From the IMG/VR virus record IMGVR_UViG_3300010276_000001: 64,000 bases of DNA, one strand, 5' to 3'. This DNA comes from a virus. The notes under the pieces were generated by a model, which was not told the DNA's origin, ran no database searches, and saw nothing but the letters and a program-made list of their open reading frames with translations. The position numbers were made by a program, and so were the translations under genes. Positions 28,411-45,298 of the stretch are shown piece after piece (the stretch's first letter is position 1; each line of letters opens with the position of its first letter).

Positions 28411-31400
28411 GTGGTGATACAAATGGCAGAACATGATGAATCCATGGTTAAAATAATCCAAACACTTGGTTTAGACTATGGGCCAGCCATTAAATCAACA
28501 AAATTATTTGAAGCACAGATTGAAAGTTTAAATAAACAGCTTCTTGAATTAAAAGCAAATGCCTTACAAGGTGCAAAAGAAATAAATCAAATATTTGCTT
28601 CACAGCTTGGTTCTCTTGGTGGCGGCAAGACTATTCTGGACCAATGGGGACAGCCAATAAAAACTATTCAAACAGAAGCTTCAAAACTTGGTACTGGAAT
28701 AGCAAATAGTTTTGAAACTGCTTCAAGTGCAGCTCAAAAACATGGTCAATCTGTTCAAGACGTTGCTAAAAAGTATAGTACATTTGCGTCGGAATGGCAA
28801 AGAAGAAGTTCATGGTTTTTAAGTGAACAACTCTTCCGTGGTACTATTAATGCAGCGAAAGAAACTGTACAATCTATAGCTGAAGTTGAAACAGCTATAA
28901 TGCAAATCGGAAGAGTAATGGAAGACCCTGCTTTTAATTCTAAAGAATTCAGAGACGAATTACTTAAGACTGCACGTGAATATGGTCAAGAGTTTGATGT
29001 TGCTTCTGATGTTGCGTTAAGATTTGCACAGGCTGGTTATAGCGTAAAAGATACCCTTGATTTAACAAAAACAGCTTTATTAGCCGTTAATTCTGCTGAA
29101 TTAGATGCTAAAAATGCAACTGAATCAATGATTGGTATTATGGCACAGTGGAATTTAACTGCAAATGAACTTCCTCTTGTGCTTGATAAAATCAACAAAG
29201 TTGGTGACGATTTTACTGTCACATCACAAGATTTGGTTGATGGTCTGTTACGTTCTTCTGGTGCCGCAAAAGTTATGGGAATGTCACTGGAAGATACTAT
29301 TGCAACATTAACAGTAATGCGTGAAGCATCTGGAAGAACTGGTCGTGAAGTTGGTAATGCTTTAAACTCAATCTTATCTTACATACAAAGACCTAAATCA
29401 ATAGACGTATTCGAATCTCTCGGCATTAAAATGTTTGTAGATGAAGCAAGGACACAATTCAGACCAGTAATGCAAATATTTCAAGAATTATCACAAAAAT
29501 GGAATACTGCAAGTGCAGAAATCAAAGACGCTTTTGTTGCTGCTGCTGAAGAATCCGGATTATTTAGTGAAGAATTGGCTATTGCCATGGATTCACAAGA
29601 AGAATATGCCGAAATGGTAAGAAATGTTGCAGCAGAAACAGAAAAATTTACAGACGTGCAAAAACGTGACGCTGCACAAGCCGCAGCTGGTGTATATCGT
29701 AGGAATTATCTTATAGGATTATTAGAAAGATTCGCACGTACACAAGATGTTCTTATATCAATGCAGGAAGCAGAAGGCTATTCCATGCGTGAGAATGCAA
29801 GATATATGGAAACACTTGAAGCCAAGTACAATCAATTAAAAGTATCAGCCATGGAACTTGCCGTTGCCATTGGTGATGCTGGTCTATTAGATGCATTAAA
29901 AGGTATCGTTGACGGTACCTCAAATGCAATCCAAGCATTTAATAATCTTGACCAGTCATTACAGACTTTAATTATTACCGCTGGAGAATTATTGGCTCTT
30001 GCAAGTGCAATAAAAAACATCGGTTCACTTTTTGGAATAAATGCGACTTTAGGCAGTGCAGTAAAAGCTATGTCAACATTAATTCCTGGGTGGGGTAAGT
30101 TAATACCACTGATATTAGCTGCTGCAAGTGCTATAGGACTTTATGCATACAATCAACATAGTGCTACTAAACAAGAAACAGAAGATACCATTAGCAGAAT
30201 CAATGCTAGGCAAAATGAAATATCACAGATAGAATCATTAAAAAGTCAATATGAGCAACTTGCAAAGTCAGGTAACATCACTGAAGAAGCAAAAAAATCT
30301 TTATTTAATATCCAAAAACAATTAATAGATTCTTATGGGATTGAAACCGGTGCTATTGATTTGGTCAATGGTAAATATGGTGACCAAATTAAAATTATTG
30401 ATAACTTAATTCAAAGCAAAAAAGACTTAAATGCCGTAGAGCTTGAAGCCCAAAGAATTAAAGCAATAGACTTCTTAGGAACTGAAGATATTACTAAAAT
30501 TTCACTAAAAGGCATAATCGATCCATTTAGTGATACTGAAACCAATAGAATAATAGAAAGAGTAAGAAACTTAGCAAAAGAAGTTGGTGCCATTGCAGGC
30601 TTTAATTGGGCAGGCGTAGGTAATGTTATAGAATTTAAAGGTAATCCGGAAGAAAAGCTTAAAGTACTTACAGAATATTATAAAAAACTTAAAGAAATTG
30701 AACGTGAAATAGATGATGACGAATATGGAACATTTAAAAATCTATTAAGTGATGTAAGCACAGAAATTGCAAATCTTAATAGAGAAGTTACCAACCATAA
30801 AAGTATATTAGAACAATACAATAGATTAAACTTCAATGAAACCTTGAGCGGAACAATTAATAAAGTTAAAGAGTTACAATCCTCAATGAAAGATAGTAAA
30901 GACATCGATTCTGTTAATCAACAATTAGAACAGTACAAACAAGAATTAATAAATTCTGCCGAAGCACAAGGAAAGCTGTCTGAATGGATGCCTTATATTA
31001 ATGAATTATTTAACCAAACTGCAAATTCAGCAAACAACGCCGCAAATGGTATTGATAATCAAACAAACTCTGTAATTCAGTCTATTAAAAGGATAAGTGA
31101 CCTCGCTGAAACAATAGGACTGGTCAATGATGCTTTATATAAAATGCAAAAAGGGGAAAATTTAAGCACAAAGGAAACATTAGAGCTGCTTGAAGCACAT
31201 AGTGAACTTCTCCCCTATCTTGAACAAACTGAAAATGGATATAAAATTAATGCTACTGCACTTGAAAATTTAAAGCAAAAGTTAATTGATAATGAGATTA
31301 CTACTTTAAATTCGCAGGCTAACAGTACAAGAGCTACAATAGAACAGACTGCTCAAAGAATAGGTGCTTATAATCTTGAAATTGAAGCTATTAGTAATCT

Positions 31401-33516
31401 TCAAACTGCACAAAGAGAAGCTGCAAAGCTTAGGTTAGGACAATCTGATGTAGGTATAGGTAGCCTTACTTATGAACAGTATAAAGCAACAATGGCTGCA
31501 TCTGGATTAGAACTTGATTATAAATCAGCAGATGAATTTGAAAAAGCAAAAGCCGAACAGCAAAATCTTTATAAACAAATTATTGATTATGGAGAATTAC
31601 TTGAACGTAACGAGAAATTAATAGAAATACTTAATAGTAGAACCTTCGGAGTTGGCAAGTCTACTTTTAATGACATTAATAAAAATAAAGACAAAGAAGC
31701 AAACAAAGCTCTTGACAATTATATTAAAAGACTTAATTTTAAAAAGAATATGGATGAGCTTTCTATTGAAGATGAAATTGCTGGTTATCAATATGCTTAT
31801 GATTATCTTGCAAAAACAGAAGATGAAAAAATGGATTTAATGGTCAAAATCCATAATGCACAGAAAAAATTGCAGGAAGATTTATTTAACAATCAGTTAA
31901 AGTTAATTAATCGCAAAGTTAAACTTGGAGAATGGTCCACTGAGCAAGAGATTAACGAATTAAGATGGACATTACAAGCATTCGCATTTACCGCTGAACA
32001 GAAAGAACAAATTATCGAAAGAATATATGACAAAGAGAAGCAACTGCAAAAAGAACGCTTAGCAGACTCTAAAAAATGGATTGCAGAACAAAAAGAGTTT
32101 GACTTACTCACTATTGAAGAAGAAATTGCGGCGTGGGAAAGAGTTAAAGTAAATCAAATTGATAATATAGAAGCAGTTAAAGAAGCTGAAAAGAATCTTC
32201 ATCAATTACGGAAAAAGCAAAATGAAGAATTTATAAATCTTACGGAAAAAACCTATGAACATTGGGCTAAAGTTGGAGTATATACCATAGAGCAGCAAAT
32301 TGAAAAGCTTAAAGAGTTGCATAAGCATAAACAGTATGATGCTTACGAAGAAATGAAACATATTGAAACTCTTCAAGATTTATATAAGGAATTAATCGAA
32401 GAAAGATTAGACGGAATTAAAGAAGCTGCTGAAGCAAGCATTCAAGCTATAGAAGATGAATATGAGACAAGGATTAAGGCTGAAAATGACTTAATTGATA
32501 AACTTGATAAAAAGCAGAAAGCTCTTAAAAGGCTCCGTGAAGATGAAGATTACGAGAAAAAGCGTAAGGAACTTCTTGAAAAACGTCGCTATCACGAGAT
32601 TAGAACAGGTGAAGAACATACCAAAGCCATTATTGATATTGACAAAGAATTAGCTGAACTTGAAGAAGAAATTAACCGCACTAAAGAAGACAGAAAAATT
32701 GAAGATGAAAAAGATGCTGCACAGGATAGGATTAATAATTTAGAAAATGAACGAGACGAAAAAATAAAGATAATCAATCAAGAACTAAAAAAAATTGAAG
32801 AGTTATTCGATGATAACAAAATTGACCTTATCTCTCTTGCTATGGCTACTTCTAATGGTATGTTTGAAGAATATGACAAGAACTTCTTCCAAAAAATGAA
32901 ACAAGCTATGCAAGACCTTAACTTTGAATCAACCAAAATAGGTAAAAATAAAACAATATCTCTTCCGGATGTAGCAGATATTATTTCAGACACAGAAAGT
33001 GCGATTGATAATTCAAAACCAGATATGAAAGCTATCCGTAGTCTTTTTAATGAAATAACATGGCTTAAAGGTGAATGGGCAAAAGCCAGTTCAGAAGAAG
33101 AAAGAAATCGAATAGCTTCTGATGCTCAAGTTTATTATCGACAACTTGAAGCATTGCCTGGCGGTAGTGCATATGCAGCTATGTTACGGAAAATGTCTTA
33201 TGAAGATGCCTTTAAGTACTTGAAAAATCAAAATAACTGGAACTATCCTATTGCACATACTGGCGGTTTATCAGCAGATTATGGATATTACTACTTGAAA
33301 CCAGGTGAACTAATAGTACGTTCAGATTTAACATCAGGACTTGAAAAACTTCTGTCTGCATTTAACAGAAAATCAACATCTTCAACTATGATGGATAATA
33401 GTAAACATACTTCTATAGGCACGTTATTGAATGTTGAACATATGCACATGGAAGATGATATTGATGGCGATATTCTTTCAAGGCAACTGCAAAGGACAAT
33501 TTTAGCGATACGTTAA
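28411..33516 (+). CDS. tail tape measure protein (TP901-like core)
   Basis: 1701 aa helical; ALRFAQAGY, REASGRTGREVGNALNSI; C-terminal AHTGG...PGELIV. Confidence 0.92.
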   Translation: MVIQMAEHDESMVKIIQTLGLDYGPAIKSTKLFEAQIESLNKQLLELKANALQGAKEINQIFASQLGSLGGGKTILDQWGQPIKTIQTEASKLGTGIANSFETASSAAQKHGQSVQDVAKKYSTFASEWQRRSSWFLSEQLFRGTINAAKETVQSIAEVETAIMQIGRVMEDPAFNSKEFRDELLKTAREYGQEFDVASDVALRFAQAGYSVKDTLDLTKTALLAVNSAELDAKNATESMIGIMAQWNLTANELPLVLDKINKVGDDFTVTSQDLVDGLLRSSGAAKVMGMSLEDTIATLTVMREASGRTGREVGNALNSILSYIQRPKSIDVFESLGIKMFVDEARTQFRPVMQIFQELSQKWNTASAEIKDAFVAAAEESGLFSEELAIAMDSQEEYAEMVRNVAAETEKFTDVQKRDAAQAAAGVYRRNYLIGLLERFARTQDVLISMQEAEGYSMRENARYMETLEAKYNQLKVSAMELAVAIGDAGLLDALKGIVDGTSNAIQAFNNLDQSLQTLIITAGELLALASAIKNIGSLFGINATLGSAVKAMSTLIPGWGKLIPLILAAASAIGLYAYNQHSATKQETEDTISRINARQNEISQIESLKSQYEQLAKSGNITEEAKKSLFNIQKQLIDSYGIETGAIDLVNGKYGDQIKIIDNLIQSKKDLNAVELEAQRIKAIDFLGTEDITKISLKGIIDPFSDTETNRIIERVRNLAKEVGAIAGFNWAGVGNVIEFKGNPEEKLKVLTEYYKKLKEIEREIDDDEYGTFKNLLSDVSTEIANLNREVTNHKSILEQYNRLNFNETLSGTINKVKELQSSMKDSKDIDSVNQQLEQYKQELINSAEAQGKLSEWMPYINELFNQTANSANNAANGIDNQTNSVIQSIKRISDLAETIGLVNDALYKMQKGENLSTKETLELLEAHSELLPYLEQTENGYKINATALENLKQKLIDNEITTLNSQANSTRATIEQTAQRIGAYNLEIEAISNLQTAQREAAKLRLGQSDVGIGSLTYEQYKATMAASGLELDYKSADEFEKAKAEQQNLYKQIIDYGELLERNEKLIEILNSRTFGVGKSTFNDINKNKDKEANKALDNYIKRLNFKKNMDELSIEDEIAGYQYAYDYLAKTEDEKMDLMVKIHNAQKKLQEDLFNNQLKLINRKVKLGEWSTEQEINELRWTLQAFAFTAEQKEQIIERIYDKEKQLQKERLADSKKWIAEQKEFDLLTIEEEIAAWERVKVNQIDNIEAVKEAEKNLHQLRKKQNEEFINLTEKTYEHWAKVGVYTIEQQIEKLKELHKHKQYDAYEEMKHIETLQDLYKELIEERLDGIKEAAEASIQAIEDEYETRIKAENDLIDKLDKKQKALKRLREDEDYEKKRKELLEKRRYHEIRTGEEHTKAIIDIDKELAELEEEINRTKEDRKIEDEKDAAQDRINNLENERDEKIKIINQELKKIEELFDDNKIDLISLAMATSNGMFEEYDKNFFQKMKQAMQDLNFESTKIGKNKTISLPDVADIISDTESAIDNSKPDMKAIRSLFNEITWLKGEWAKASSEEERNRIASDAQVYYRQLEALPGGSAYAAMLRKMSYEDAFKYLKNQNNWNYPIAHTGGLSADYGYYYLKPGELIVRSDLTSGLEKLLSAFNRKSTSSTMMDNSKHTSIGTLLNVEHMHMEDDIDGDILSRQLQRTILAIR

Positions 33517-33574: not shown

Positions 33575-34063
33575 ATGGTAAATATGACCGAAAGAACTTT
33601 AGAAGCTACAGGAGGATTATTTGGCTTTATTATAGCGGCTTTTTGGGGTAGCTGGCAAATAGTAATTGTATTATTGGTTCTTTATGGAATATTTTTATTA
33701 TGCAACTTAATAACTGGTCTATTATATGCTTTTCAAACCAACACATATGACCGACAAATTGCATTTAAAGCTACATTAAGGAAAGCAGGTGTACTAATTG
33801 GTATATTTGCTTTTATGGTGCTGGATTGGGTGTTAATAGGACTATGTTCAAGCTTTAATATTGCTTATAAATTACCTTTTTTGTATGCTTTTTTTACGAG
33901 TTATCAAGCTATGCACGAATTCACAAGTATGCTTACGAATCTCAAAAAACTCGGCAACAAAATCCCTACAGCTATTGAAAAAGCAGCAAAAAAAGCAGCA
34001 GATGATTTAGATAGGGGTAAAATACCAGGATTACCTAATTTCAAAGGAGATGAAGAAGAATGA
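33575..34063 (+). CDS. holin (phage holin family 4-like)
   Basis: Three hydrophobic segments, EFTSMLTNLKKLG..IP motif. Confidence 0.8.
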   Translation: MVNMTERTLEATGGLFGFIIAAFWGSWQIVIVLLVLYGIFLLCNLITGLLYAFQTNTYDRQIAFKATLRKAGVLIGIFAFMVLDWVLIGLCSSFNIAYKLPFLYAFFTSYQAMHEFTSMLTNLKKLGNKIPTAIEKAAKKAADDLDRGKIPGLPNFKGDEEE

Positions 34064-34800
34064 AAATATTCATTGACCCTGGTCATAACGGCCGAGGAGT
34101 AGACCCTGGGGCAGTTGGTCTAAGTGGATTGTTAGAATGTGATGTTGCTCTTGCAGTAGCAAGGTTAGTTAATAAAAAACTACAATATAACGGCATTGAA
34201 ACAAAAATGTATCGTGACGGTGATGTTCCGTATTATGGCGGCAGTAGCAATTCAGATTTAAAACGCAGATGTATTCTCGCTAATAATTGGGGTGCTGATT
34301 ATTTTATTTCTATCCATTGCAATAGTGCAAGTCCGGCTGCACATGGAACAGAAACATATTGCTATAAGTTTGGCGGCAATGGTGAAAAGTTGGCCAGAAT
34401 CATTCAAGATAAATTAATCCATACGACCGGATTGACGAATCGTGGTGTTAAGGAAGGTAACTTTGCCGTCATTAGAGATACTAATATGCCTGCTGTATTA
34501 ACCGAATTAGCTTTTATTAGCAACTTGCAAGAAGAAAAAATTCTTGCAAGTCCACAATGGCATGACATAATGGCTACTGCTATTGCAAGTGGAATATGTG
34601 AATTTGTTGGAATTCAATATAAAAAGGAGGTAATTAATTTGAAAGACTATGAGAACCATTGGGCTAAAAACGATATTGAGTATTGTATGAATGAAGGTAT
34701 CTTTGCTCAATCTGATACTTTCAGACCTGATGAGCAGTTAACACGTGCTGAAGCTGCTGTTATTATGGCAAGACTTCTTAAAAAAGTAAAGGGGGCATAA
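34060..34800 (+). CDS. endolysin: N-acetylmuramoyl-L-alanine amidase (Amidase_3) + SLH-like tail
   Basis: IDPGHNG, E, ISIHCNS, PAVLTELAF; HWAK...FRPDEQLTRAEAAVIMAR. Confidence 0.93.
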   Translation: MKIFIDPGHNGRGVDPGAVGLSGLLECDVALAVARLVNKKLQYNGIETKMYRDGDVPYYGGSSNSDLKRRCILANNWGADYFISIHCNSASPAAHGTETYCYKFGGNGEKLARIIQDKLIHTTGLTNRGVKEGNFAVIRDTNMPAVLTELAFISNLQEEKILASPQWHDIMATAIASGICEFVGIQYKKEVINLKDYENHWAKNDIEYCMNEGIFAQSDTFRPDEQLTRAEAAVIMARLLKKVKGA

Positions 34801-34806
34801 TTTATT

Positions 34807-35106
34807 ATGACATTGATACAATCAATAATTACTGTTTCATTGGCTATTACTTCCCTCGCATGCGTGTTTTACCTGTTTAAAACAAAACAATATGACAGGC
34901 TTAGAAAAATTGCTTATCAGTTAATCCTTCAAGCAGAAAGAGCATATACCAATGGTAACTTTAAAATGAATTTTGTTGTTGATACAATCTATAATACATA
35001 TTTCCCTCCTTGGCTTAAAATATTTGTTACTAAAGATGATTTAAAAGCACAACTGCAAATATGGTATAACGAAATAAGAGAATACTTACAGGACAAGCAA
35101 ATATAA
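34807..35106 (+). CDS. second holin-like protein (single N-terminal TM)
   Basis: N-terminal TM then AYQLILQAERAY..G..K pattern. Confidence 0.65.
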   Translation: MTLIQSIITVSLAITSLACVFYLFKTKQYDRLRKIAYQLILQAERAYTNGNFKMNFVVDTIYNTYFPPWLKIFVTKDDLKAQLQIWYNEIREYLQDKQI

Positions 35107-35161
35107 CTTAAAATACGAACCGTTCTAAAAAACGGTTTTTTTATTGTATTAAGATAAGGAG

Positions 35162-35689
35162 TTGATAATAATGTTTGAAAAAGCTAAAGGTATAGATAAT
35201 GTTGCTATTAATACTGGTGTTGGGGTTTGTGAGAAAATAAGTTGGAAACCAAAATGGAAAATTGAGAAATTTAACAAACATGGTGAATTATATGCTACAG
35301 AAGAATTTGACGGCAACTTATTACTGAATGAAGGAATAAATGAATTACTTAAACTATTAATCGGTGGTTCTGCTACTGCATATAGTAGTGCTAATGCATA
35401 TATTGGTGTTGGTGATGGTACCACTGCTGCAAATGCAACACAAACAGGATTAGTAGGTACGAATAAGGCCTATGCACCAATGGATGCCACATATCCGCAA
35501 GTAAATAATCAAACCGTTACTTTTATGGCTACATTCGGTGCCGGTCAAGCTGCTTTTGCGTGGAAAGAATTTACTGTATGTAATTCTAATAGCGATTCTG
35601 GAAAAAACCTTAACCGTAAAGTAGAAGACCATGGTACAAAATCAACGCTTGATACATGGAGAATTTCATGCTCAATAACAATATCATAA
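35162..35689 (+). CDS. virion tail/baseplate protein
   Basis: LLNEGINELL...YIGVGDGTTAA...ANFAWKE-like pattern typical of phage tail proteins. Confidence 0.6.
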   Translation: MIIMFEKAKGIDNVAINTGVGVCEKISWKPKWKIEKFNKHGELYATEEFDGNLLLNEGINELLKLLIGGSATAYSSANAYIGVGDGTTAANATQTGLVGTNKAYAPMDATYPQVNNQTVTFMATFGAGQAAFAWKEFTVCNSNSDSGKNLNRKVEDHGTKSTLDTWRISCSITIS

Positions 35690-35754
35690 ACATCTTAATT
35701 TAGAAAGCAGAGTTTCAGGGCTCTGCTTTATTTTTATATAAAGGATGTGATAAT

Positions 35755-38499
35755 ATGGCAAAAACAAATTGGCAAGACCCACAAAGTACAGAAATACGGT
35801 CCACTCATATATCAGGTTTACAAGATGCAATAAAAAAGCTTGAAGAAGCTGTTGACTTAAGTACAGTATCGGAAACTAACATTCCCCTTAATTATGTTTT
35901 ATCCTATAATCCGGAAACCGGATTGCAAGAATATAGGATATATCAAGCACCGGAAGGCAAAAGAAATTGGCTTGTCTCCCCTGCCCCAGTTATAAAGAAA
36001 AACGGAGTAGTAATTACTGATGGTTTTACAATTGATTACGGTGGCGGTGCTATAATTTTAAGTCCTGCTGCAACGGCTAATGATGTTTTTACAGCCGATG
36101 TGACATATACCACTAATAAAACTGAACCTGCTTATTTTGAAGATGAATTTACATCTTCTATCTATAGCTTATCAGACACAGTTGAGAAAGGACAACTTAG
36201 CGTAGAAAGTATACAGGGGAATACTGCGACAAATATTATTAAAAATGGGAACTTTGCAGTAGATTCAAATAGCGATGGCATTGCAGATGGTTGGTATAGA
36301 AGTAGCACGAATTCTGAGGGGTTTAGAATAGAAAACAATGCACAATATTGGACACCTTTAAATGCCGCATGGTCTGGTAGTATACACACAAAATCCGTAG
36401 AAAAAGTGGCGGGGCATAAATATTATATTAGATTTGAAGGTAAAAATATTAATAAAAATATTTTTTTTTCAATCGAACAGACTATTAACACAGCAACTGA
36501 TGCTGATGGTATAAGGTCATTAGTATTTACGGCAACTACTAATAGTGGAAAACAAGATTTATTATTTTATGGCAAAAAAGGCAATGTTGAGTCCTATTTA
36601 AAAGATGTAATCCTCATTAATCTGACACAAACCTTCGGAACAGGAAGTGAACCAACAAAAGAAGAGTGTGACAAAAGATTCCCACATTATATAGACTCCA
36701 CTAAATCTACAATTAGCGCATTGAGATTAACCTCACAAGACGAGAACGAAGAAAATCAAAGTTATATGTACACCAAAGCCGTTGATGATGAAGGGCATAT
36801 ACTTCCTATGCGTTCTCTACCAAACAACGTTCAAGATGAATTATACGTAGATAACGGACAATATAAATTTAAGCAGAACATAGGAGTAAAAAATGACGTA
36901 CCGCAAGATACAGTAATTGACTATGCAGATATGGCAACAGGCGGTCAATTTGTAGCTTATGCGGCAGACGGAACAACTCAGGTGGGCGTAAAAGGCGATA
37001 TCCTTACTATAGATGCAGTTTCGCTAAATTATCAATTAGCTACACCTGTTGTTACCCCTGCGGAGGTAATAGGACACCTTGACAGCCATCCGAATGGCAC
37101 AATAATCGTTGAGCCGATTGTAGCAGACTTTGACTTTTATGACGAAGAAGAAGGAATCATAATCAAGGATATAAATGTACCAATCAAAAGGCTTGATAAA
37201 GTAATTTGGACTGATAAAGAGACAGGCTACGAAGTTGACATTACCGACACTTGTACAGTAGCAGGCAATAAATTAGGTTTTACAAGCACTTATGCGGTGG
37301 AAGGCGATTTGATATGGTATGAATACGAGTATGATAGCAGTATGACTACGTTGCCTACGGTTAGTTTTAAAGCGCCGTTGAACAGTAAGGCTGTAATTGA
37401 AGATTTAGTAAAAGCTAAAGGTGAGTTGCAGAAGAAAACGGATAATTTAGATTTGAGAGTGCAGGGGGTTAGTAAGAGGGTTGACAGTATTCCTGTTGCT
37501 TCTAACTTCATAATAGCACCATCAGATGCAATAAATAAAGAGCGTGCTGATTTGGTGTTAACTGGTGTTCCTGCTGATGATTTAGCAGCGATAAATAATG
37601 CAATTACAATGTTGCATACCATGAGAGCAAGTGTGGATGTAGCAATTAGGATTGACTTCTTAGGTGGAACAATAGATGTTGGCACAAAAACAGACGGAAA
37701 CGCAATAGTAATTCCTGTTGGATATGACAATATTTATTTATATGGCAATGGGGTTAAGCTGACTGGTTACGTTTATGATCCTGACGATGTCGAAATGTAT
37801 TCGGTATTTACAAATAATGCAGATAATGTGATTATTGATGGGTTTAATATAGTTAATAACACAAGTGATTATTATGGGTATGGTTTATCTAACACTGGCA
37901 CTAACTGCACTATCACAGGTAATACTTGTAGTAGTGATTATGGTAATGGTTTATACAACACTGGCGCTAACTGCACTATAACAGGTAACACTTGTAGTGG
38001 TATGTATAATGATGGTTTATACAACACTGGCGCTAACTGCACTATCTCAGGTAATACTTGTAGTGGTAGTGATTATGGTGATGGTTTATATAACACTGGC
38101 GCTAACTGCACTATAACATCTAACACTTGTAATTCTAATGCTAATGGTCTATTTAACACTGGCACTAACTGCACTATAACAGGTAATACTTGTAGTGGTA
38201 GTGATGGTGATGGTTTATTCAACTCTGGCACAAACTGCACTATAACATCTAACACTTGTAATGCTAGTGGTGGTGGTTTATCTAACTCTGGCACTAACTG
38301 CACTATAACAGGTAACACTTGTAGTAGTGATTATGGTTATGGTTTATATAACAGCTCGACCAGCACAACTGATAAATGTATAATCACAGGAAACATTTGT
38401 CTTAATGGTGGTATATCTGTTAAGTCAGGCACTTGTCTGCCCGCTACGCAAGAAGCAATGGCAGATGTTAATTCTGGAACAATAGAAATTAGACCATAG
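35755..38499 (+). CDS. tail fibre / receptor-binding protein with CBM-like domain and C-terminal parallel beta-helix
   Basis: NIIKNGNF..DSNSDGIADGW, LINLTQTFGTGSEPT; Asn/Cys ladder repeats. Confidence 0.8.
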   Translation: MAKTNWQDPQSTEIRSTHISGLQDAIKKLEEAVDLSTVSETNIPLNYVLSYNPETGLQEYRIYQAPEGKRNWLVSPAPVIKKNGVVITDGFTIDYGGGAIILSPAATANDVFTADVTYTTNKTEPAYFEDEFTSSIYSLSDTVEKGQLSVESIQGNTATNIIKNGNFAVDSNSDGIADGWYRSSTNSEGFRIENNAQYWTPLNAAWSGSIHTKSVEKVAGHKYYIRFEGKNINKNIFFSIEQTINTATDADGIRSLVFTATTNSGKQDLLFYGKKGNVESYLKDVILINLTQTFGTGSEPTKEECDKRFPHYIDSTKSTISALRLTSQDENEENQSYMYTKAVDDEGHILPMRSLPNNVQDELYVDNGQYKFKQNIGVKNDVPQDTVIDYADMATGGQFVAYAADGTTQVGVKGDILTIDAVSLNYQLATPVVTPAEVIGHLDSHPNGTIIVEPIVADFDFYDEEEGIIIKDINVPIKRLDKVIWTDKETGYEVDITDTCTVAGNKLGFTSTYAVEGDLIWYEYEYDSSMTTLPTVSFKAPLNSKAVIEDLVKAKGELQKKTDNLDLRVQGVSKRVDSIPVASNFIIAPSDAINKERADLVLTGVPADDLAAINNAITMLHTMRASVDVAIRIDFLGGTIDVGTKTDGNAIVIPVGYDNIYLYGNGVKLTGYVYDPDDVEMYSVFTNNADNVIIDGFNIVNNTSDYYGYGLSNTGTNCTITGNTCSSDYGNGLYNTGANCTITGNTCSGMYNDGLYNTGANCTISGNTCSGSDYGDGLYNTGANCTITSNTCNSNANGLFNTGTNCTITGNTCSGSDGDGLFNSGTNCTITSNTCNASGGGLSNSGTNCTITGNTCSSDYGYGLYNSSTSTTDKCIITGNICLNGGISVKSGTCLPATQEAMADVNSGTIEIRP
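37882..38352 (+). repeat. 7 tandem 63-69 bp coding repeats (GLxNTGxNCTITGNTCSxxxxx) plus start of an 8th
   Basis: Unit starts at 37882, 37948, 38014, 38083, 38146, 38212, 38275, 38341. Confidence 0.92.
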
Positions 38500-39088: not shown

Positions 39089-40156
39089 ATGGCAAAGTAT
39101 AATTCAGGCGTTTTATATAATAGTAAAAAAAACAGTTACAATTCTGCCAACTTCTATATCATTGAAGTAACTGATTACGGCAACTTTCAAGATATAATAT
39201 CAAACATAATTGATACAATAGTAGTTACGGATAATTCATTTGGTAACGATTCAATATCAGCTATTGCAGAATACAACATAAATGATAGCGGCAATTCCAA
39301 TGACAGTGTTAATATGTCAATATCGCCTTTAATTAATGATTCTGGCATAAGCAACGATACTATTGCCATTGTTGCTACTGTAGAACTTACAAAAGATTTT
39401 GGAGGTGGTATTGATTCAATTATTGAATGTAAAAAGTATTCAGCAGATATGTATTTTGTGGTAGATACAGAAGGAATTTTACAACCACTTGGTGTAATGG
39501 TGCTTGGTGATAGTAGAAAAGACTTACTCCCTCCGACAAGAGATATGACCGAAGAAATTCCGGGACGGCATGGAGAAATTGACTTTGGTACAGAATTCAA
39601 AGCAAGACCTTTAGAGCTTCATGTTGCTACTATAGAAGGGTTAAGTCCATTAGAAAAAGAGGAATTACGTCGCAAATGTGCAATGTATCTAAATCCTACG
39701 ACCGGAACAAAAAAACTTGTATTTCTTGATGACCCTGACAAAGAATACAATGTTAAATATTCAGGGAAAATTACACCTACCAATCAACCGACTTGGTTTG
39801 ACTTTACTATACCATTTAAGATGTGCGACCCATTAATTTATGATGGAAATGAAACTGTATTAGTTGGTAGTGGTACTCTCAATAATACTGGAACTTGTGA
39901 GACAGGAATAATTATCGAAGTTGCAGGACCTTCCACTAATCCTTTTATAACTATTGGTAGTGATACATTAGCTTATACCGGAACTATTCCAGAAGGACAA
40001 AAATTAATTATTGATACAGAATTGATGACTGCTAAATTAAACGGTGTTAATGTGCTTGCTGATTATAACGGTGTATTCCCTAAAATTAAACCAGGCCAAA
40101 CTTCTGTTACTTCTGGAAGCAATGTAACAATAAAATTAAAAAGCAAATGGTTATAA
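39089..40156 (+). CDS. distal tail (Dit-like) protein with N-terminal low-complexity extension
   Basis: EEIPGRHGEIDFG..F..R, F.IPFKMCDPL; N/S/D-rich N-terminus. Confidence 0.8.
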   Translation: MAKYNSGVLYNSKKNSYNSANFYIIEVTDYGNFQDIISNIIDTIVVTDNSFGNDSISAIAEYNINDSGNSNDSVNMSISPLINDSGISNDTIAIVATVELTKDFGGGIDSIIECKKYSADMYFVVDTEGILQPLGVMVLGDSRKDLLPPTRDMTEEIPGRHGEIDFGTEFKARPLELHVATIEGLSPLEKEELRRKCAMYLNPTTGTKKLVFLDDPDKEYNVKYSGKITPTNQPTWFDFTIPFKMCDPLIYDGNETVLVGSGTLNNTGTCETGIIIEVAGPSTNPFITIGSDTLAYTGTIPEGQKLIIDTELMTAKLNGVNVLADYNGVFPKIKPGQTSVTSGSNVTIKLKSKWL

Positions 40157-40172: not shown

Positions 40173-42890
40173 ATGACAATACCTGAATATATAATTATAA
40201 AGGATAAAGACGGTAAAATAACTGCTTACCTGTCACCTAAAGCTGATAATTTAAAAGATTGTTATCCGGATGCAAGATTAAACGGTGAATCTACTCTTGA
40301 ATTTCAACTCCCTGCTACTTCTGAAAAAATAGAAGAATTAACTCCTGAATGTCAAATATGGGCTGGTGGACGTGTTTATTCACTTTTGAATGATGAATCT
40401 GTGGATACAATCATGGACGAATCCGGTAAATTGTGGACTAAATTTATGGCTATCGAAAGATGGAATGACTTAGACAATCAATTTGCGGAGCCATATTTAA
40501 CAAATGACCCTACTACCCCACCAACTGATTTGTCAGTTAAAATACTTTCAGGAGGAGATAATTTATCCGGTGGATTATATTTTACTGGAAGTGCTGCCCA
40601 TGCAATGTACGCAATTTTGCAATATTCAGATTGGAATATGGGTGTTGTAGATGTCCCTGGGATACATGATTTAGAAGTAGAAAAAGTCAGCATACTTCAA
40701 GTTATAAAACAAATTCAAGAAATTTGGGGCGGCTATCTTGTATGGGATAGCGAAAATAAAGTAGTACATTTGCGTTCAGGTGATACGTGGCAAAGTTATA
40801 CCGGTTTTCAAATACGATATGCAAAGAATATGAAGCATATCACAAGAACACAGAGTAATAGGATTGTTACAAAGCTGTATGCTTTCGGTGCTGATGATTT
40901 GGATATTGCTTCTGTAAATGATGGTAAAAAATATGTTGAAAATCATAGCTTTACATCAAGAAATTACGTTGATATTTATAGCAATCCTGATATTTACGAC
41001 CCACAAGAATTAAAAGAAAAAGCCGAAGCTGAATTAGCACTTAGATGCAAACCACGATATAATTATAAAACAAAAATGGTTGATTTAAGAACTTTACCGG
41101 AATATTCACATGAAGATTTTTCTCTTGGTGATATGGCAGATATATTGAATGAGAAACTTGATATTACAGATAAAGCAAGAATCATAAGACACAAATATAA
41201 TCTATTCCAACCTTGGCAATGTGAATTAGAACTTGGAGATCCTGAAGAAAGATTGGTTGAAAAGCTTAAGGCCTCTTTTGATACCAGTAACTTTATAGAT
41301 AATACTTTTAAATCAACTGGTAATATATCCGGTAAAAAACTGGTAGACGGTACGGTTATCGGTAACAAAATAGCCAAAGCTGCTTTAGATGCTTCAAAGT
41401 TTAATACTAAGCAAATTATACTTACGAATGATGTTTGGACTGATAACTCACCGTCAAGCGGTTATGTTTCATGGAATTCTCACAAATTATTCTATGCCGG
41501 CGTTGAATATACAATATCAGCAGGCAACACAAATAAAAAATATATCGTTTGGCGTAAAGATATTAGTTCTACACAATATCAGACATATACAGAGCAGGAA
41601 TTCGCAAACGTAACACTTGCTGACTATGATTTTGTCATTGCAGTAAATAATGGTGGTATTCATGATATAGCTTGGTATAACAGGCTTGCAAGGCAATTCA
41701 TAGGCAGTGCTTTTATAGCTGAAGCTGCTATTAAAACCGCACATATTGCAGAAGCACAAATTGTTGATGCACATATTTCAAATCTTTCAGTAAGTAAGCT
41801 TACAAGTGGTATTATTACAGCAGATAATATTTATGTTGGCTCTGACCAAAAGTTTTGGTTATCCGGTGCTAATCAAAATTTAGTTGTTAATGATGGAACA
41901 AGAGATAGAGTGATTGTCGGAAAAAATGGTTCAGATTATGGTATTTGGGTAAAGGATTCTTCAGGGGGCACTATTTTAAGCGCTTCTGGACTTGGTGTTA
42001 ATGTAGTTGGAAATGAACAAATATTGGATAACTCAATTGAAAGTGTAAAAATCAAAAGCCTTTCCGCTGATCTGATTAATGCTGTTGAAGGTATTGTACT
42101 TGGTGCAAATGCAACTATAACATGGGAGGAATTACCTTCATTACCTAATGCCGAACAGGTTGGTGCAAAACCTTATGATTGGGTACCGGGGATTTCTGAT
42201 GTAACAGGTTTAGAAGGTAGACTTACTTATATTGATGGTCAAGGTATATATACAGGCACACTTACCGCACAACAAATTAACGCTATACAAGGCATACAAT
42301 TAGGCTCTAATGCTATTATTAATTGGAATGAAATAAACAGAGACCCTAAAACAGATGATGCATATGATTTGGCTGACGATGCTTATAGCTACGCTGGCAG
42401 TGCATATAGCAGAGCAGGAACAGCAATAGGATACACTCAACAACTTGCAAGTGGTACATATACCGGTCCGTATAGTTCCACTACTTTTATTAACGGTACT
42501 ACTGTATATTCGCCTGTTGTACGTGGTGGATATGTTGTTGGTACTAAACTATTTGCAGTAAATAACCCTAATGCTACAATTTCAGGTGGGGATATTTCAG
42601 GGTATAAACGATTAATTATTGATAACAATGGAATAGTCAGTTATAATGACGATGATGAATTGGATGGAATTAGAATTAATGCCAATGATGGATTTGGTAC
42701 TATACGGTTTTATTATAATGATGAACCTAGAGGACATTTGCAACAATCTGGTGGCTCCATATTTTTAAAAGGCGAAACTAACTTATATATTCGTTCAGGA
42801 ACTAAAACGTATATAGAAAACAATGTAAGTTTTGCTAATGCGACAAGCATTGATTGGGGAAATCATGCACCTGTTGCACGGTTTAAGTAA
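40173..42890 (+). CDS. tail spike/Tal-like baseplate hub protein
   Basis: LNGESTLEF, IRYAKNMK.ITR, VTKLYAFG, AKIVDAHISNLS-type repeats. Confidence 0.8.
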   Translation: MTIPEYIIIKDKDGKITAYLSPKADNLKDCYPDARLNGESTLEFQLPATSEKIEELTPECQIWAGGRVYSLLNDESVDTIMDESGKLWTKFMAIERWNDLDNQFAEPYLTNDPTTPPTDLSVKILSGGDNLSGGLYFTGSAAHAMYAILQYSDWNMGVVDVPGIHDLEVEKVSILQVIKQIQEIWGGYLVWDSENKVVHLRSGDTWQSYTGFQIRYAKNMKHITRTQSNRIVTKLYAFGADDLDIASVNDGKKYVENHSFTSRNYVDIYSNPDIYDPQELKEKAEAELALRCKPRYNYKTKMVDLRTLPEYSHEDFSLGDMADILNEKLDITDKARIIRHKYNLFQPWQCELELGDPEERLVEKLKASFDTSNFIDNTFKSTGNISGKKLVDGTVIGNKIAKAALDASKFNTKQIILTNDVWTDNSPSSGYVSWNSHKLFYAGVEYTISAGNTNKKYIVWRKDISSTQYQTYTEQEFANVTLADYDFVIAVNNGGIHDIAWYNRLARQFIGSAFIAEAAIKTAHIAEAQIVDAHISNLSVSKLTSGIITADNIYVGSDQKFWLSGANQNLVVNDGTRDRVIVGKNGSDYGIWVKDSSGGTILSASGLGVNVVGNEQILDNSIESVKIKSLSADLINAVEGIVLGANATITWEELPSLPNAEQVGAKPYDWVPGISDVTGLEGRLTYIDGQGIYTGTLTAQQINAIQGIQLGSNAIINWNEINRDPKTDDAYDLADDAYSYAGSAYSRAGTAIGYTQQLASGTYTGPYSSTTFINGTTVYSPVVRGGYVVGTKLFAVNNPNATISGGDISGYKRLIIDNNGIVSYNDDDELDGIRINANDGFGTIRFYYNDEPRGHLQQSGGSIFLKGETNLYIRSGTKTYIENNVSFANATSIDWGNHAPVARFK

Positions 42891-42955: not shown

Positions 42956-43615
42956 ATGTTTAAAAGATTAAAAGACTTAACTATTGGTGTGTTAATTGGG
43001 TCATTGTTATTTTGTATTGTTCCTACTATTGCAAATACGGTTAAAACTTTTGTTGCAGAAGAAGCAACCTTCCCTATTTTAGTAGATGGACAGGAAGTTA
43101 AATTAGATATGCCTGCTGTAACTATCGAAGGTAGGACATATTTACCATTAAGAACGCTAGGGAATATTCTTGGTGTAAAGGTAGATTGGAATGCTGAAAA
43201 AGGACAAGCCGAGATTATCAAGGAGGTTAAAAAAATGCAAAGTACGCAGGTACATGCAAGTGATACAGAATATTCTTTTGTTACTATCAATGAAAAGGAA
43301 TACATTAATGTCGTCGATGTTAATAATATATGTAATGAAAAAGGTTATATTTTTTCTTGGTCAATAAATATCAAGAAAAAACAATGGTATACTTTAATGA
43401 GGTCGGATGTCGGTGGAATAACTAGAGAAAAGTTATTGCAAATAATAGGAATATCAGAAGAAGAATCGGATGGATTAGGGAACGAAGATTTAAAAATAAA
43501 ATATGGATTAATGATATATTCAGAAAATTCAGAATTTTTCACTGAACAAAATGGATATCTATACATGACAAAAGAAGAGTTTGAAACTGTTGTACTGCCG
43601 TTTATAAATAAATAG
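42956..43615 (+). CDS. secreted protein with copper-amine-oxidase N-terminal/stalk-like domain (moron)
   Basis: Signal peptide; ILVDGQEV...IEGRTYLPLRTLGNILGVKVDWN; own promoter and terminator (43629-43658). Confidence 0.8.
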   Translation: MFKRLKDLTIGVLIGSLLFCIVPTIANTVKTFVAEEATFPILVDGQEVKLDMPAVTIEGRTYLPLRTLGNILGVKVDWNAEKGQAEIIKEVKKMQSTQVHASDTEYSFVTINEKEYINVVDVNNICNEKGYIFSWSINIKKKQWYTLMRSDVGGITREKLLQIIGISEEESDGLGNEDLKIKYGLMIYSENSEFFTEQNGYLYMTKEEFETVVLPFINK

Positions 43616-43796
43616 AATACCTAAAACAAAGCACTTTATCTTTGATAGGGTGCTTTTGTTATGCAAATTTTAGAGGTTATGGCTTGTCGAGATGATAACC
43701 CATCTAACCTTTCAAATTTATAATAGGCTGGATACTTTATCCGGTCTTTTTCTTTTTACAAAATTCAAATAAATTTGAAGAAATGGAGGTATTCAA

Positions 43797-44057
43797 ATGA
43801 TGGAAACAATATCATATTTAGGTATAGCAGGCGGCAGAGTTCATAGACGAGAAAAATCAAAGAAAATAGAGAAAAAAGAAGATGGTCAATATGTTGTAAA
43901 ACGTGAGTTAATTGTTGAAGAATATGTTTCTCCTGACGCATTAGAATTTCAAATACAAGCCATTGAAACTGAAATTAAAAATTATCAAGAGAAGATTAGA
44001 ACATGTGAAATAAAAAAAGCAGATATATTAAAAATGTTAAATGAAATAAAGGGTTGA
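43797..44057 (+). CDS. hypothetical coiled-coil protein
   Basis: ORF with GGAGG RBS. Confidence 0.65.
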   Translation: MMETISYLGIAGGRVHRREKSKKIEKKEDGQYVVKRELIVEEYVSPDALEFQIQAIETEIKNYQEKIRTCEIKKADILKMLNEIKG

Positions 44058-45223
44058 TTATTATGGCTTATGATATAAGAGATGCTTTGGGATTTGAACC
44101 ATATATTACTTCGCAATATACATATGTTCCAGTTAGTGTTGAAGACGATTATTATTCATGGTTTGAAGCTGATTCATGTGTTGCAAATGCTATAGCTACA
44201 ATAATTGAAATTTATGATTATGTAAAGACTGGAAAACAAAGAAGATTTTCATTTTTATGGATATATGGTAATAGACGCTCTACTGATTATCAAGGCGAAG
44301 GTTTGTTGTATTACGAAACATTAGATAATTTAAAATCAGATGGTGTACCCTTTTATGAATTAGTTAGAAACGAAAATAGAAGGTATTGGGATTCACAATA
44401 TGTAGCACCATATAATTCTTCAACATATCCTACATATCTTCGTCACAATAAAAATGCTAAACAAATAGTTTCAGAAATTCGAAGCAGCTTACTATCACAA
44501 GCACAAACACGAAGAATATTCGATTGGTTTGAAATAAATAGCTATAATGTTGATTTAATGAAAAATTGGTTGGAAGCTAACAAAGCATTGTTACTTCCAA
44601 TTGATTTGACAGACGCTTTTTATGATTTAGGGTATGACGGCATTTTACCGACAGGAAGTTCTTCGGATTATGTATATCCGATAGGACATACTTTAGTTAT
44701 TATAGGTTGGAAAGAGATAAATGGCAAACATCATTGGATTTGTCAAAATAGTTGGGGTGTTGATTGGGGGAATAATGGTATATGTTATGTACCTTGGGAT
44801 TGTTATCATATTTATAACAGTTACGTTTTAATCCCTGGAAGTTATGGAAATCCTCCTGCCCCTTCAAATTGGACTAAATGGAGTAGTACAATTGTTAAAG
44901 GGCAATCTTTTAATATTAAAGCTCAAGATTGGAATGATTTTATAAATCATATAGCGGTAGTATATAACTATAAAGGATATGACCTTGACTTTGAATATGA
45001 AGAACATGAACCTCCTTGGTGGTATAGAGAAGGTAGTGGATATGATGGTGAAAAAGATTGTTATGTAAAAAGTGGCGATGAACCTTATGCGTGGAATTTC
45101 AACAGAGTTCGGTATGCAATCGGTCGGAAATCATCTACAGGAATTGGTAATAAATATCCGGATGATGAAATATATGCAAGTTATTTTCATACGCTAGAAG
45201 ATGCCATTAACGATCTAGTATAA
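44054..45223 (+). CDS. papain-like (C1A) cysteine peptidase fused to a tail-type C-terminal domain
   Basis: DSCVANA (Cys), GHTLVIIGW (His), CQNSWGVDWGNNG (Asn); C-terminal QDWNDFINHI...FNRVRYAI...DEIYASYFHTL. Confidence 0.8.
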   Translation: MIIMAYDIRDALGFEPYITSQYTYVPVSVEDDYYSWFEADSCVANAIATIIEIYDYVKTGKQRRFSFLWIYGNRRSTDYQGEGLLYYETLDNLKSDGVPFYELVRNENRRYWDSQYVAPYNSSTYPTYLRHNKNAKQIVSEIRSSLLSQAQTRRIFDWFEINSYNVDLMKNWLEANKALLLPIDLTDAFYDLGYDGILPTGSSSDYVYPIGHTLVIIGWKEINGKHHWICQNSWGVDWGNNGICYVPWDCYHIYNSYVLIPGSYGNPPAPSNWTKWSSTIVKGQSFNIKAQDWNDFINHIAVVYNYKGYDLDFEYEEHEPPWWYREGSGYDGEKDCYVKSGDEPYAWNFNRVRYAIGRKSSTGIGNKYPDDEIYASYFHTLEDAINDLV

Positions 45224-45273: not shown

Positions 45274-45298
45274 ATAGAGGGGTATCTACCCCTCTATT
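45274..45298. terminator. bidirectional terminator between late and early blocks
   Basis: ATAGAGGGG-TATCTA-CCCCTCTAT palindrome. Confidence 0.7.

Follow-up and report, generated by a model that had tools for sequence, protein, structure and literature searches.

We focused on a gene behind the tail genes in a 64,000-nucleotide stretch of virus DNA (IMG/VR virus record IMGVR_UViG_3300010276_000001), referred to here as the window. Judged from its sequence and from structural models, this gene (44063..45223, + strand; 386 amino acids plus stop) encodes a two-part phage protein, in which a papain-family peptidase is followed by a helical C-terminal module (CTD). The first part has the fold and the catalytic triad of papain-like enzymes, the end piece is modular, and the gene keeps its position next to the tail genes Dit and Tal among relatives. 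The source phage infects a Gram-positive bacterium, and our best reading, to which we assign a probability of roughly 45%, is that the product would be a protease borne on the tail tip and directed at the host envelope. Phage C1 peptidases as such are already catalogued in phrog_16701; what appears to be new is a peptidase subfamily fused to a tail-module end piece, with a conserved post-Tal position and a remodelled oxyanion loop, for which literature searches gave no precedent.

An earlier note on this DNA had described the open reading frame (ORF) as running from 44054 to 45223. The frame is present there, but ATG 44063 is a likelier start than TTG 44054, because an AAAGGG box lies 9 nucleotides 5' of the ATG, the TTG overlaps the stop codon (44055-44057) of an upstream 86-amino-acid ORF, and an identical database protein (P0002) has 386 amino acids and begins at ATG 44063. 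The identical protein is encoded on 19 contigs. Residue numbering throughout refers to the 386-amino-acid form.

The peptidase domain

Residues 1-260 (44063..44842, + strand) make up a papain-family (C1A) peptidase domain, as assigned from Pfam, AlphaFold2 (AF2), Foldseek and VIA. The Pfam model PF00112 (Peptidase_C1) matched with an E value of 9e-10 and 39.4 bits against a cut-off of 20.7, the match spanning only positions 109-200 of the 220 in the profile, and no second Pfam domain, peptidoglycan-hydrolase domains included, was found in the 386-amino-acid protein. Among the PHROGs, it matched phrog_16701 (“peptidase”), and its phmmer matches in PDB sequences were ficin(s), Der p 1 and cathepsins. 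A profile built from the subfamily reached C1A chains of the PDB (Der p 1 at E 2e-13) and was aligned with xylellain across the catalytic cysteine.

Structural modeling gave the same picture. In the full-length AF2 model, which was built from 14 sequences, the peptidase core has a pLDDT of about 75-85, with values below 50 for residues 1-37 and 109-128. Foldseek aligned the peptidase model with mature C1A enzymes of the PDB over both lobes with a probability of 1.0. In the VIA comparison, the highest score was to xylellain (3OIS; Z 18.6, 210 residues aligned, model residues 12-260), followed by cathepsins B, K and S, Der p 1 and ficin (Z 17-18); overall, the C1A matches had Z scores of 17-18.6 with 190-213 residues aligned over the model range 12-262. 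The fold check by AlphaFold that the earlier note had proposed therefore came out in favor of its call of a papain-like cysteine protease.

The catalytic residues of papain are C25, H159 and N175, with Q19 in the oxyanion hole. Their catalytic counterparts in the window protein are Cys39 (motif SC-VANA; codon 44177..44179), His209 (G-H-T-L; 44687..44689) and Asn229 (44747..44749), all on the + strand. Asn229 stands in a Q-N-S-W-G motif equivalent to papain N175-S-W-G, as also seen in alignments with PDB chains. The three residues, which the earlier note had recognized as a Cys-His-Asn triad, are invariant in 14 homologues with 22-85% identity, and the N-S-W-G motif (S230, W231, G232) is conserved in the same homologues. 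The invariance of the triad down to 22% identity argues for selection on catalysis. By profile, modeled fold and triad, the protein is a genuine papain-family (C1A) peptidase.

All zymogen features of the classical C1A enzymes (cathepsin L/papain type) are missing. A prodomain is ruled out because only 38 residues lie ahead of Cys39 and the model alignment begins at residue ∼7 of the mature enzymes. Hydropathy of the 386-amino-acid protein gave no signal peptide or transmembrane segment (maximum, 0.95), and with only five cysteines in the protein, the conserved disulfides are absent. The peptidase would thus be made in the cytoplasm, already in its mature form.

The oxyanion position

The earlier note had pointed to a replaced oxyanion glutamine in the motif SWFEADSC, and this observation proved correct. 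At position -6 from the catalytic cysteine, the site of papain Gln19, both homologue and profile alignments place Trp33 (codon 44159..44161, + strand), which lies opposite the glutamine of xylellain in the profile alignment; the protein therefore lacks the oxyanion glutamine that goes with family C1. This glutamine is kept in the short phage forms of ∼278 amino acids and in the CTD-bearing protein P0005. It is gone from most CTD-bearing members, among which a tryptophan at -6 or -7 together with a glutamate at -4 recurs in a slightly longer loop. We rejected the glutamine of an N-terminal P-x-I/V-T-S-Q motif as a displaced oxyanion residue, since its spacing from YDIRD and from papain P-x-x-V-D-W-R, as well as the xylellain profile alignment, puts it in the DWR-equivalent segment. 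We presume that the peptidase would be active despite the lost glutamine.

The C-terminal module

The helical CTD occupies residues ∼267-386 (44861..45220, + strand), as delimited by phmmer, alignment, a local hidden Markov model (HMM), PHROG positions and AF2. To collect its relatives, we used residues 262-386 alone in a phmmer search of 1.84 billion representatives (threshold, E≤1e-3), which matched 66 proteins; 62 non-repetitive clusters of these were aligned, and 64 of the 66 proteins were scanned for domains. The module is C terminal in all 62 aligned clusters, ending no more than 4 residues from the C terminus in 58 and 17-47 residues from it in the other four. Its consensus is approximately RP..F.W....G..F.L.A.EWN.....I.....YKG ... 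G....A..FN..R.AIGS...TGI..K..GD.I.AS.F..L.D.LN.I. An insertion of ∼20 amino acids (YDLDFEYEEH...) is found only in the window protein and its closest relative, which is 85% identical.

The sequences in front of the CTD vary. A C1 peptidase precedes it in at least eight clusters and FN3/Ig-like domains do so in others; among the 64 scanned proteins, 18 contain fn3 domains, a few have other Ig-like domains, four pass the threshold for Pfam Peptidase_C1, and none has an amidase, lysozyme or CHAP domain. Many of the proteins are only ∼190-310 amino acids long and consist of a single beta-sandwich domain plus the CTD, which identifies the CTD as the constant part. The fusion of peptidase and CTD was found by local phmmer and HMM searches in P0002-P0006, P0026, P0029 and P0044, as well as in the loci L087, L088, L091, L092, L094, L100 and L101 (464-725 amino acids), and some of the fusions carry an FN3-like domain, either between peptidase and CTD or at the N terminus. 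Taken together, these sequences show that the CTD is an independent module with an exchangeable N-terminal payload, be it FN3/Ig-like or a peptidase.

More than half of the scanned CTD proteins (36 of 64) match phrog_37329, whose function is not assigned and in whose 594-column profile the CTD corresponds to positions ∼494-594. The CTD of the window protein matches this profile weakly (E 0.018, positions 496-534); the local CTD HMM, which has this very sequence in its training set, gives it 119 bits. Modeled on its own from 66 sequences, the CTD is predicted to be mostly helical (pLDDT, 83; pTM, 0.77), and in the full-length model from 14 sequences it is unfolded. With the CTD model, Foldseek retrieved no match in the PDB. 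The best VIA Z score was 5.4, no more than noise for helical proteins, with weak TssK rows among the matches at this level, and BFVD gave just uncharacterized phage proteins plus weak rudivirus rows. Pfam likewise has no match to the CTD, which may or may not bind the cell wall, and a word-index search for longer CTD-bearing proteins yielded none.

Position of the gene among relatives

The peptidase gene lies 3' of Tal in the window and in seven metagenomic relatives (L086, L088, L090, L091, L094, L100 and L101). This synteny, which lends support to a tail association, is kept among relatives at 29-77% identity, two of which have no spacer at all; in L100 and L101, the peptidase starts about 16-20 nucleotides after the end of Tal. 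The gene order in L100 is TMP, Dit, Tal (PF06605), peptidase plus CTD, a 1,710-amino-acid BppU_N protein and, further on, a 134-amino-acid ORF and an amidase. Taking the 134-amino-acid ORF as a holin, by position only, the peptidase gene of L100 has Tal on one side and a BppU_N baseplate protein on the other and lies 6 kb from the putative holin and amidase. L101 shows the order TMP, Dit, Tal, peptidase plus CTD. Intervening genes occur in the other loci: a tail protein and Tal are followed by a 134-amino-acid ORF and then peptidase plus CTD in L094; Tal, a Cu_amine_oxidN1 protein, a 152-amino-acid ORF, peptidase plus CTD and a convergent regulator succeed each other in L088; Dit, Tal, a minus-strand Cu_amine_oxidN1 gene and peptidase plus CTD do so in L091; and L086, whose peptidase is 77% identical, has Tal, a minus-strand gene, a homologue of the 86-amino-acid ORF and the peptidase.

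The CTD proteins of two isolated Bacillus phages, Basilisk gp52 and Nate gp211, lack a peptidase and are encoded directly after Dit-/Tal-type genes and before lysis genes. Basilisk gp52 has been called hypervariable and was speculated to be a tail-associated structural protein (PMC6145125). The earlier note had likened the last ∼120 amino acids to tail-protein ends of clostridial phages. The tail-type character agrees with the C-terminal location in all 62 clusters and with the place of the gene after Dit and Tal, but the isolated phages with this module infect Bacillus and not clostridia.

Three further observations concern the family at large. First, a beta-sandwich-like ORF of 131-154 amino acids lies just 5' of the peptidase in L088 (2710-3168), L090 (1489-1953), L092 (951-1346), L094 (7564-7968) and L097 (7224-7619). 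These ORFs are homologous to the N-terminal domains of the CTD proteins P0022, P0037, P0056 and P0076, indicating module shuffling or gene fission/fusion in the family. Second, a Pelotomaculum sp. metagenome-assembled genome (L085 7086-12339; JAHDOA010000016.1) encodes a 403-amino-acid CTD protein, followed by a 232-amino-acid tail-fibre-like protein, Avd and a reverse transcriptase. These genes make up a diversity-generating retroelement beside the host-recognition genes of a prophage. Third, the short forms of ∼278 amino acids (P0008-P0013) have a short basic, hydrophobic/amphipathic tail in place of the CTD; this tail might act on membranes or serve as an anchor.

Neighborhood in the window

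Upstream of the peptidase, the window contains TMP (28411-33516), a Phage_holin_4_1 holin (33575-34063), an endolysin (34060..34800, + strand) in which domain matches revealed Amidase_3 and one SLH domain, a 175-amino-acid protein without assigned function (35162-35689), and a 914-amino-acid beta-helix protein (NosD/Beta_helix) followed by a 125-amino-acid protein; the stretch from the holin to the beta-helix protein covers 33575-38499. Then come Dit (39089..40156, + strand; PF05709, PF22768, phrog_33) and the tail-tip protein Tal (40173..42890, + strand; Prophage_tail PF06605). The Dit matches start at residue ∼122 of 355, leaving an N-terminal extension of ∼120 amino acids without family assignment. 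The placement of a lysis cassette and a beta-helix protein between TMP and Dit is an unusual order; in L100, the putative lysis genes come after the baseplate genes.

Tal is followed by a 219-amino-acid protein (42956..43615, + strand) with an N-terminal signal/anchor and a Cu_amine_oxidN1 domain. Homologues occupy the same slot, on either strand, in L086, L087, L088, L091, L092 and L099. By sequence and setting, the gene resembles a prophage moron, and its product might function at the surface or in exclusion. The next ∼180 nucleotides (43616..43796, + strand) form a structured spacer with terminator-like hairpins at about 43630-43660 and 43725-43747, the latter followed by a T-run, and with a third, central hairpin before the next ORF; its folding energy is -57.6 kcal/mol (z = -6.75). 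No convincing sigma-70-type promoter was found between the spacer hairpins and the following cassette, and expression of this cassette may therefore depend on terminator read-through.

The cassette consists of the 86-amino-acid ORF (43797..44057, + strand) and the peptidase. The small ORF, which has a coiled-coil-like C terminus and no Pfam or PHROG match, stops 5 nucleotides before the peptidase ATG, suggesting that the two are translationally coupled. It is 76% identical in L086 (2560-2820), where it also stands ahead of the peptidase. Its product could be a chaperone, adaptor or inhibitor of the prodomain-less protease. A bidirectional, intrinsic-terminator-like hairpin (45274..45297) closes both the peptidase gene and a convergent regulator gene, and a convergent gene block follows it. 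The peptidase had earlier been placed at the end of the structural operon: it is indeed the last + strand gene before the convergent block, but the two-hairpin spacer splits it off, together with the small ORF, from the genes before.

As for the phage as a whole, a search of the phage collection gave no near-DNA match to the window, and TerL and Tal of the window retrieve only distant phages.

A possible role at the tail tip and its alternatives

If the product is an envelope protease carried on the tail tip, the CTD would anchor or multimerize its payload at the tail tip or baseplate, and the virion-carried peptidase would locally cleave a proteinaceous surface barrier of the host. Such cleavage would let the non-contractile tail reach the wall and the membrane. 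The likeliest barrier would be an S-layer or another SLH-anchored surface protein. The SLH domain of the phage endolysin indicates that the host has an SLH-binding wall polymer; many S-layer proteins are SLH-anchored, so that this domain is suggestive of an S-layer-type substrate. Location in the virion, docking through the end piece and the nature of the substrate are steps that we infer from sequence and gene order. The fully specified version, in which a prodomain-less papain protease sits on a non-contractile tail through a hitherto unrecognized, widely exchanged CTD docking module, whose socket is elsewhere filled by FN3/Ig adhesins, and serves to breach the S-layer, is doubtful.

Several points weigh against a protease at the tail tip. 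Baseplate proteins usually dock by their N termini, and the constant module is C terminal here; the CTD also has no structural match that would point to docking. The lost oxyanion glutamine should weaken ordinary peptidase activity. An SLH domain tells of the type of wall polymer and is no proof of an S-layer. In the window, the gene is split from Tal by the secreted moron-like gene and by two terminator-like hairpins, and it may thus not be coexpressed with the tail genes. Relatives of the short form, without CTD, are found at scattered positions, some beside endolysins, and a tally of neighbors in 37 IMG/VR loci with short-form peptidases gave no single dominant context. Literature searches turned up no tail- or virion-located C1 peptidase described for a phage; gel-band proteomics of Tsamsa identified only six bands.

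The alternative that survives best, possible if rather unlikely, is that the protein would help at lysis: it would not be part of the virion but would leave through the holin lesion and cut S-layer or wall proteins from inside, the CTD serving to bind the wall. This layout would copy the plan of Gram-positive endolysins, with their catalytic and binding domains, and the missing signal peptide is shared with endolysins as well. The short form of Thermoanaerobacterium phage THSA-485A is encoded directly after a GH25 endolysin, Basilisk gp52 and Nate gp211 stand just 5' of lysis genes, and among 140 ORFs no more than two genes away from the peptidase in the 37 IMG/VR loci with short forms, 6 have lysin domains (3 Amidase_2, 2 SLT and 1 Phage_lysozyme). 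However, in the window the holin and amidase (33575-34800) are about 9-10 kb 5' of the peptidase and not adjacent to it, the gene following Dit and Tal, which lie between, and the L100 gene is likewise inserted between Tal and the BppU_N protein, at a distance from the putative lysis genes. The CTD subfamily tracks Tal and not the lysis genes, the CTD is joined to amidase, lysozyme or CHAP in none of the 64 scanned proteins, and the enzyme-free proteins with FN3 and CTD would serve no purpose as wall-binders on their own.

It is improbable that the 86-amino-acid ORF and the peptidase form a moron or accessory cassette, expressed separately (in the prophage or early) and acting on proteins of the host or of competitors, as in superinfection exclusion, defence or counter-defence. 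The flanking of the cassette by terminator-like hairpins would fit such a role, as would its position adjoining a secreted moron-like gene of variable orientation among relatives and its rarity, a single-protein scan of 185,579 species genomes having found no close relative of the peptidase protein. Against this stand the lack of a promoter-like site upstream and of an export signal, GC and GC3 values similar to those of the tail genes, the synteny with Tal that persists across relatives at 29-77% identity (including the two without a spacer), and a CTD that is common to tail-module proteins.

Even less weight is due to the idea that the papain fold was kept for a job other than ordinary proteolysis, as a binding module, isopeptidase, wall-peptide amidase or transglutaminase-like enzyme. 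With its strictly invariant Cys, His, Asn and NSWG and its C1A fold, the protein fits true peptidases, the CTD-bearing P0005 still has its glutamine, and papain Gln19 mutants retain reduced activity. What speaks for altered chemistry is the loss of the -6 glutamine in most CTD members, with the recurrent tryptophan at -6/-7 and glutamate at -4, and the association of acyltransferase, deamidase and transglutaminase groups of the papain-like superfamily with a lost canonical oxyanion residue (PMC10318531). Finally, it is highly improbable that the enzyme serves in tail assembly or maturation, cutting tail proteins before being cast off; the sole support for this is the position in the tail module, whereas the same CTD bears non-enzymatic FN3/Ig payloads in most members and most related tail modules have no such protease.

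How phages pass proteinaceous S-layers has been described as essentially unknown, and the sole high-resolution structure of a phage that penetrates an S-layer, that of a myovirus, shows no enzymatic domains (PMC11948020). For a siphovirus, which has no contractile force, carrying a protease on its tail would solve S-layer passage in a simple way. Beyond this phage, the CTD, as the C-terminal end of PHROG 37329, would define a small exchangeable family of “payload plus anchor” proteins, and once its binding partner is known, many tail-module proteins in phages of Bacillota, the Bacillus cereus-group phages among them, could be annotated. If instead the protein helps at lysis, it would join a growing number of papain-type enzymes from phages with a role alongside endolysins.

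Comparison with known systems

Xylellain of Xylella fastidiosa (3OIS) is the best structural match of the peptidase, shares the Cys-His-Asn triad and NSWG with it, and gave the sole PDB profile alignment to extend across the Cys region. The identity is only about 19%. Xylellain has a glutamine at -6 and an N-terminal pro-region, whereas the phage protein begins at the mature domain, has a tryptophan at -6 and a loop ∼6 residues longer before the cysteine, and adds the CTD. Phage-encoded counterparts of the enzyme are the short C1 peptidases of ∼270-280 amino acids (phrog_16701; THSA-485A Tsac_2838), which also lack a prodomain and whose catalytic domain is 27% identical (E 8e-10), but these keep the oxyanion glutamine and end in a short basic hydrophobic tail instead of a CTD. 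For the end piece, the nearest counterparts are Basilisk gp52 and vB_BanS_Nate gp211 (phrog_37329), with the same CTD in the same position after Dit and Tal; they differ in their N-terminal part, which comprises ∼490 amino acids with FN3 and no peptidase.

Members of family C1 are known for the cleavage of proteins and not of peptidoglycan. Tail-associated lysins, in which CHAP, NlpC/P60, M23 or lysozyme domains are carried on Tal or TMP, resemble the present case in that an envelope-degrading enzyme is encoded in the tail-tip module. The papain-like superfamily also includes two of these domains, CHAP and NlpC/P60 (PMC10318531). These lysins are peptidoglycan hydrolases built into Tal or TMP, whereas here a separate small C1 protein with its own CTD would take their place.

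The earlier note had compared the protein to Cwp84, the C1A peptidase that processes the S-layer precursor in Clostridioides difficile. This analogy does not extend to architecture: Cwp84 is secreted as a zymogen and has a signal peptide, a prodomain and wall-binding (CWB2) repeats, none of which occurs in the phage protein, and it is not among the best 50 or 60 PDB matches listed by phmmer, Foldseek and VIA. The likeness is a functional one, in which Cwp84 offers, for a C1A peptidase in a Gram-positive setting, a precedent for an S-layer substrate.

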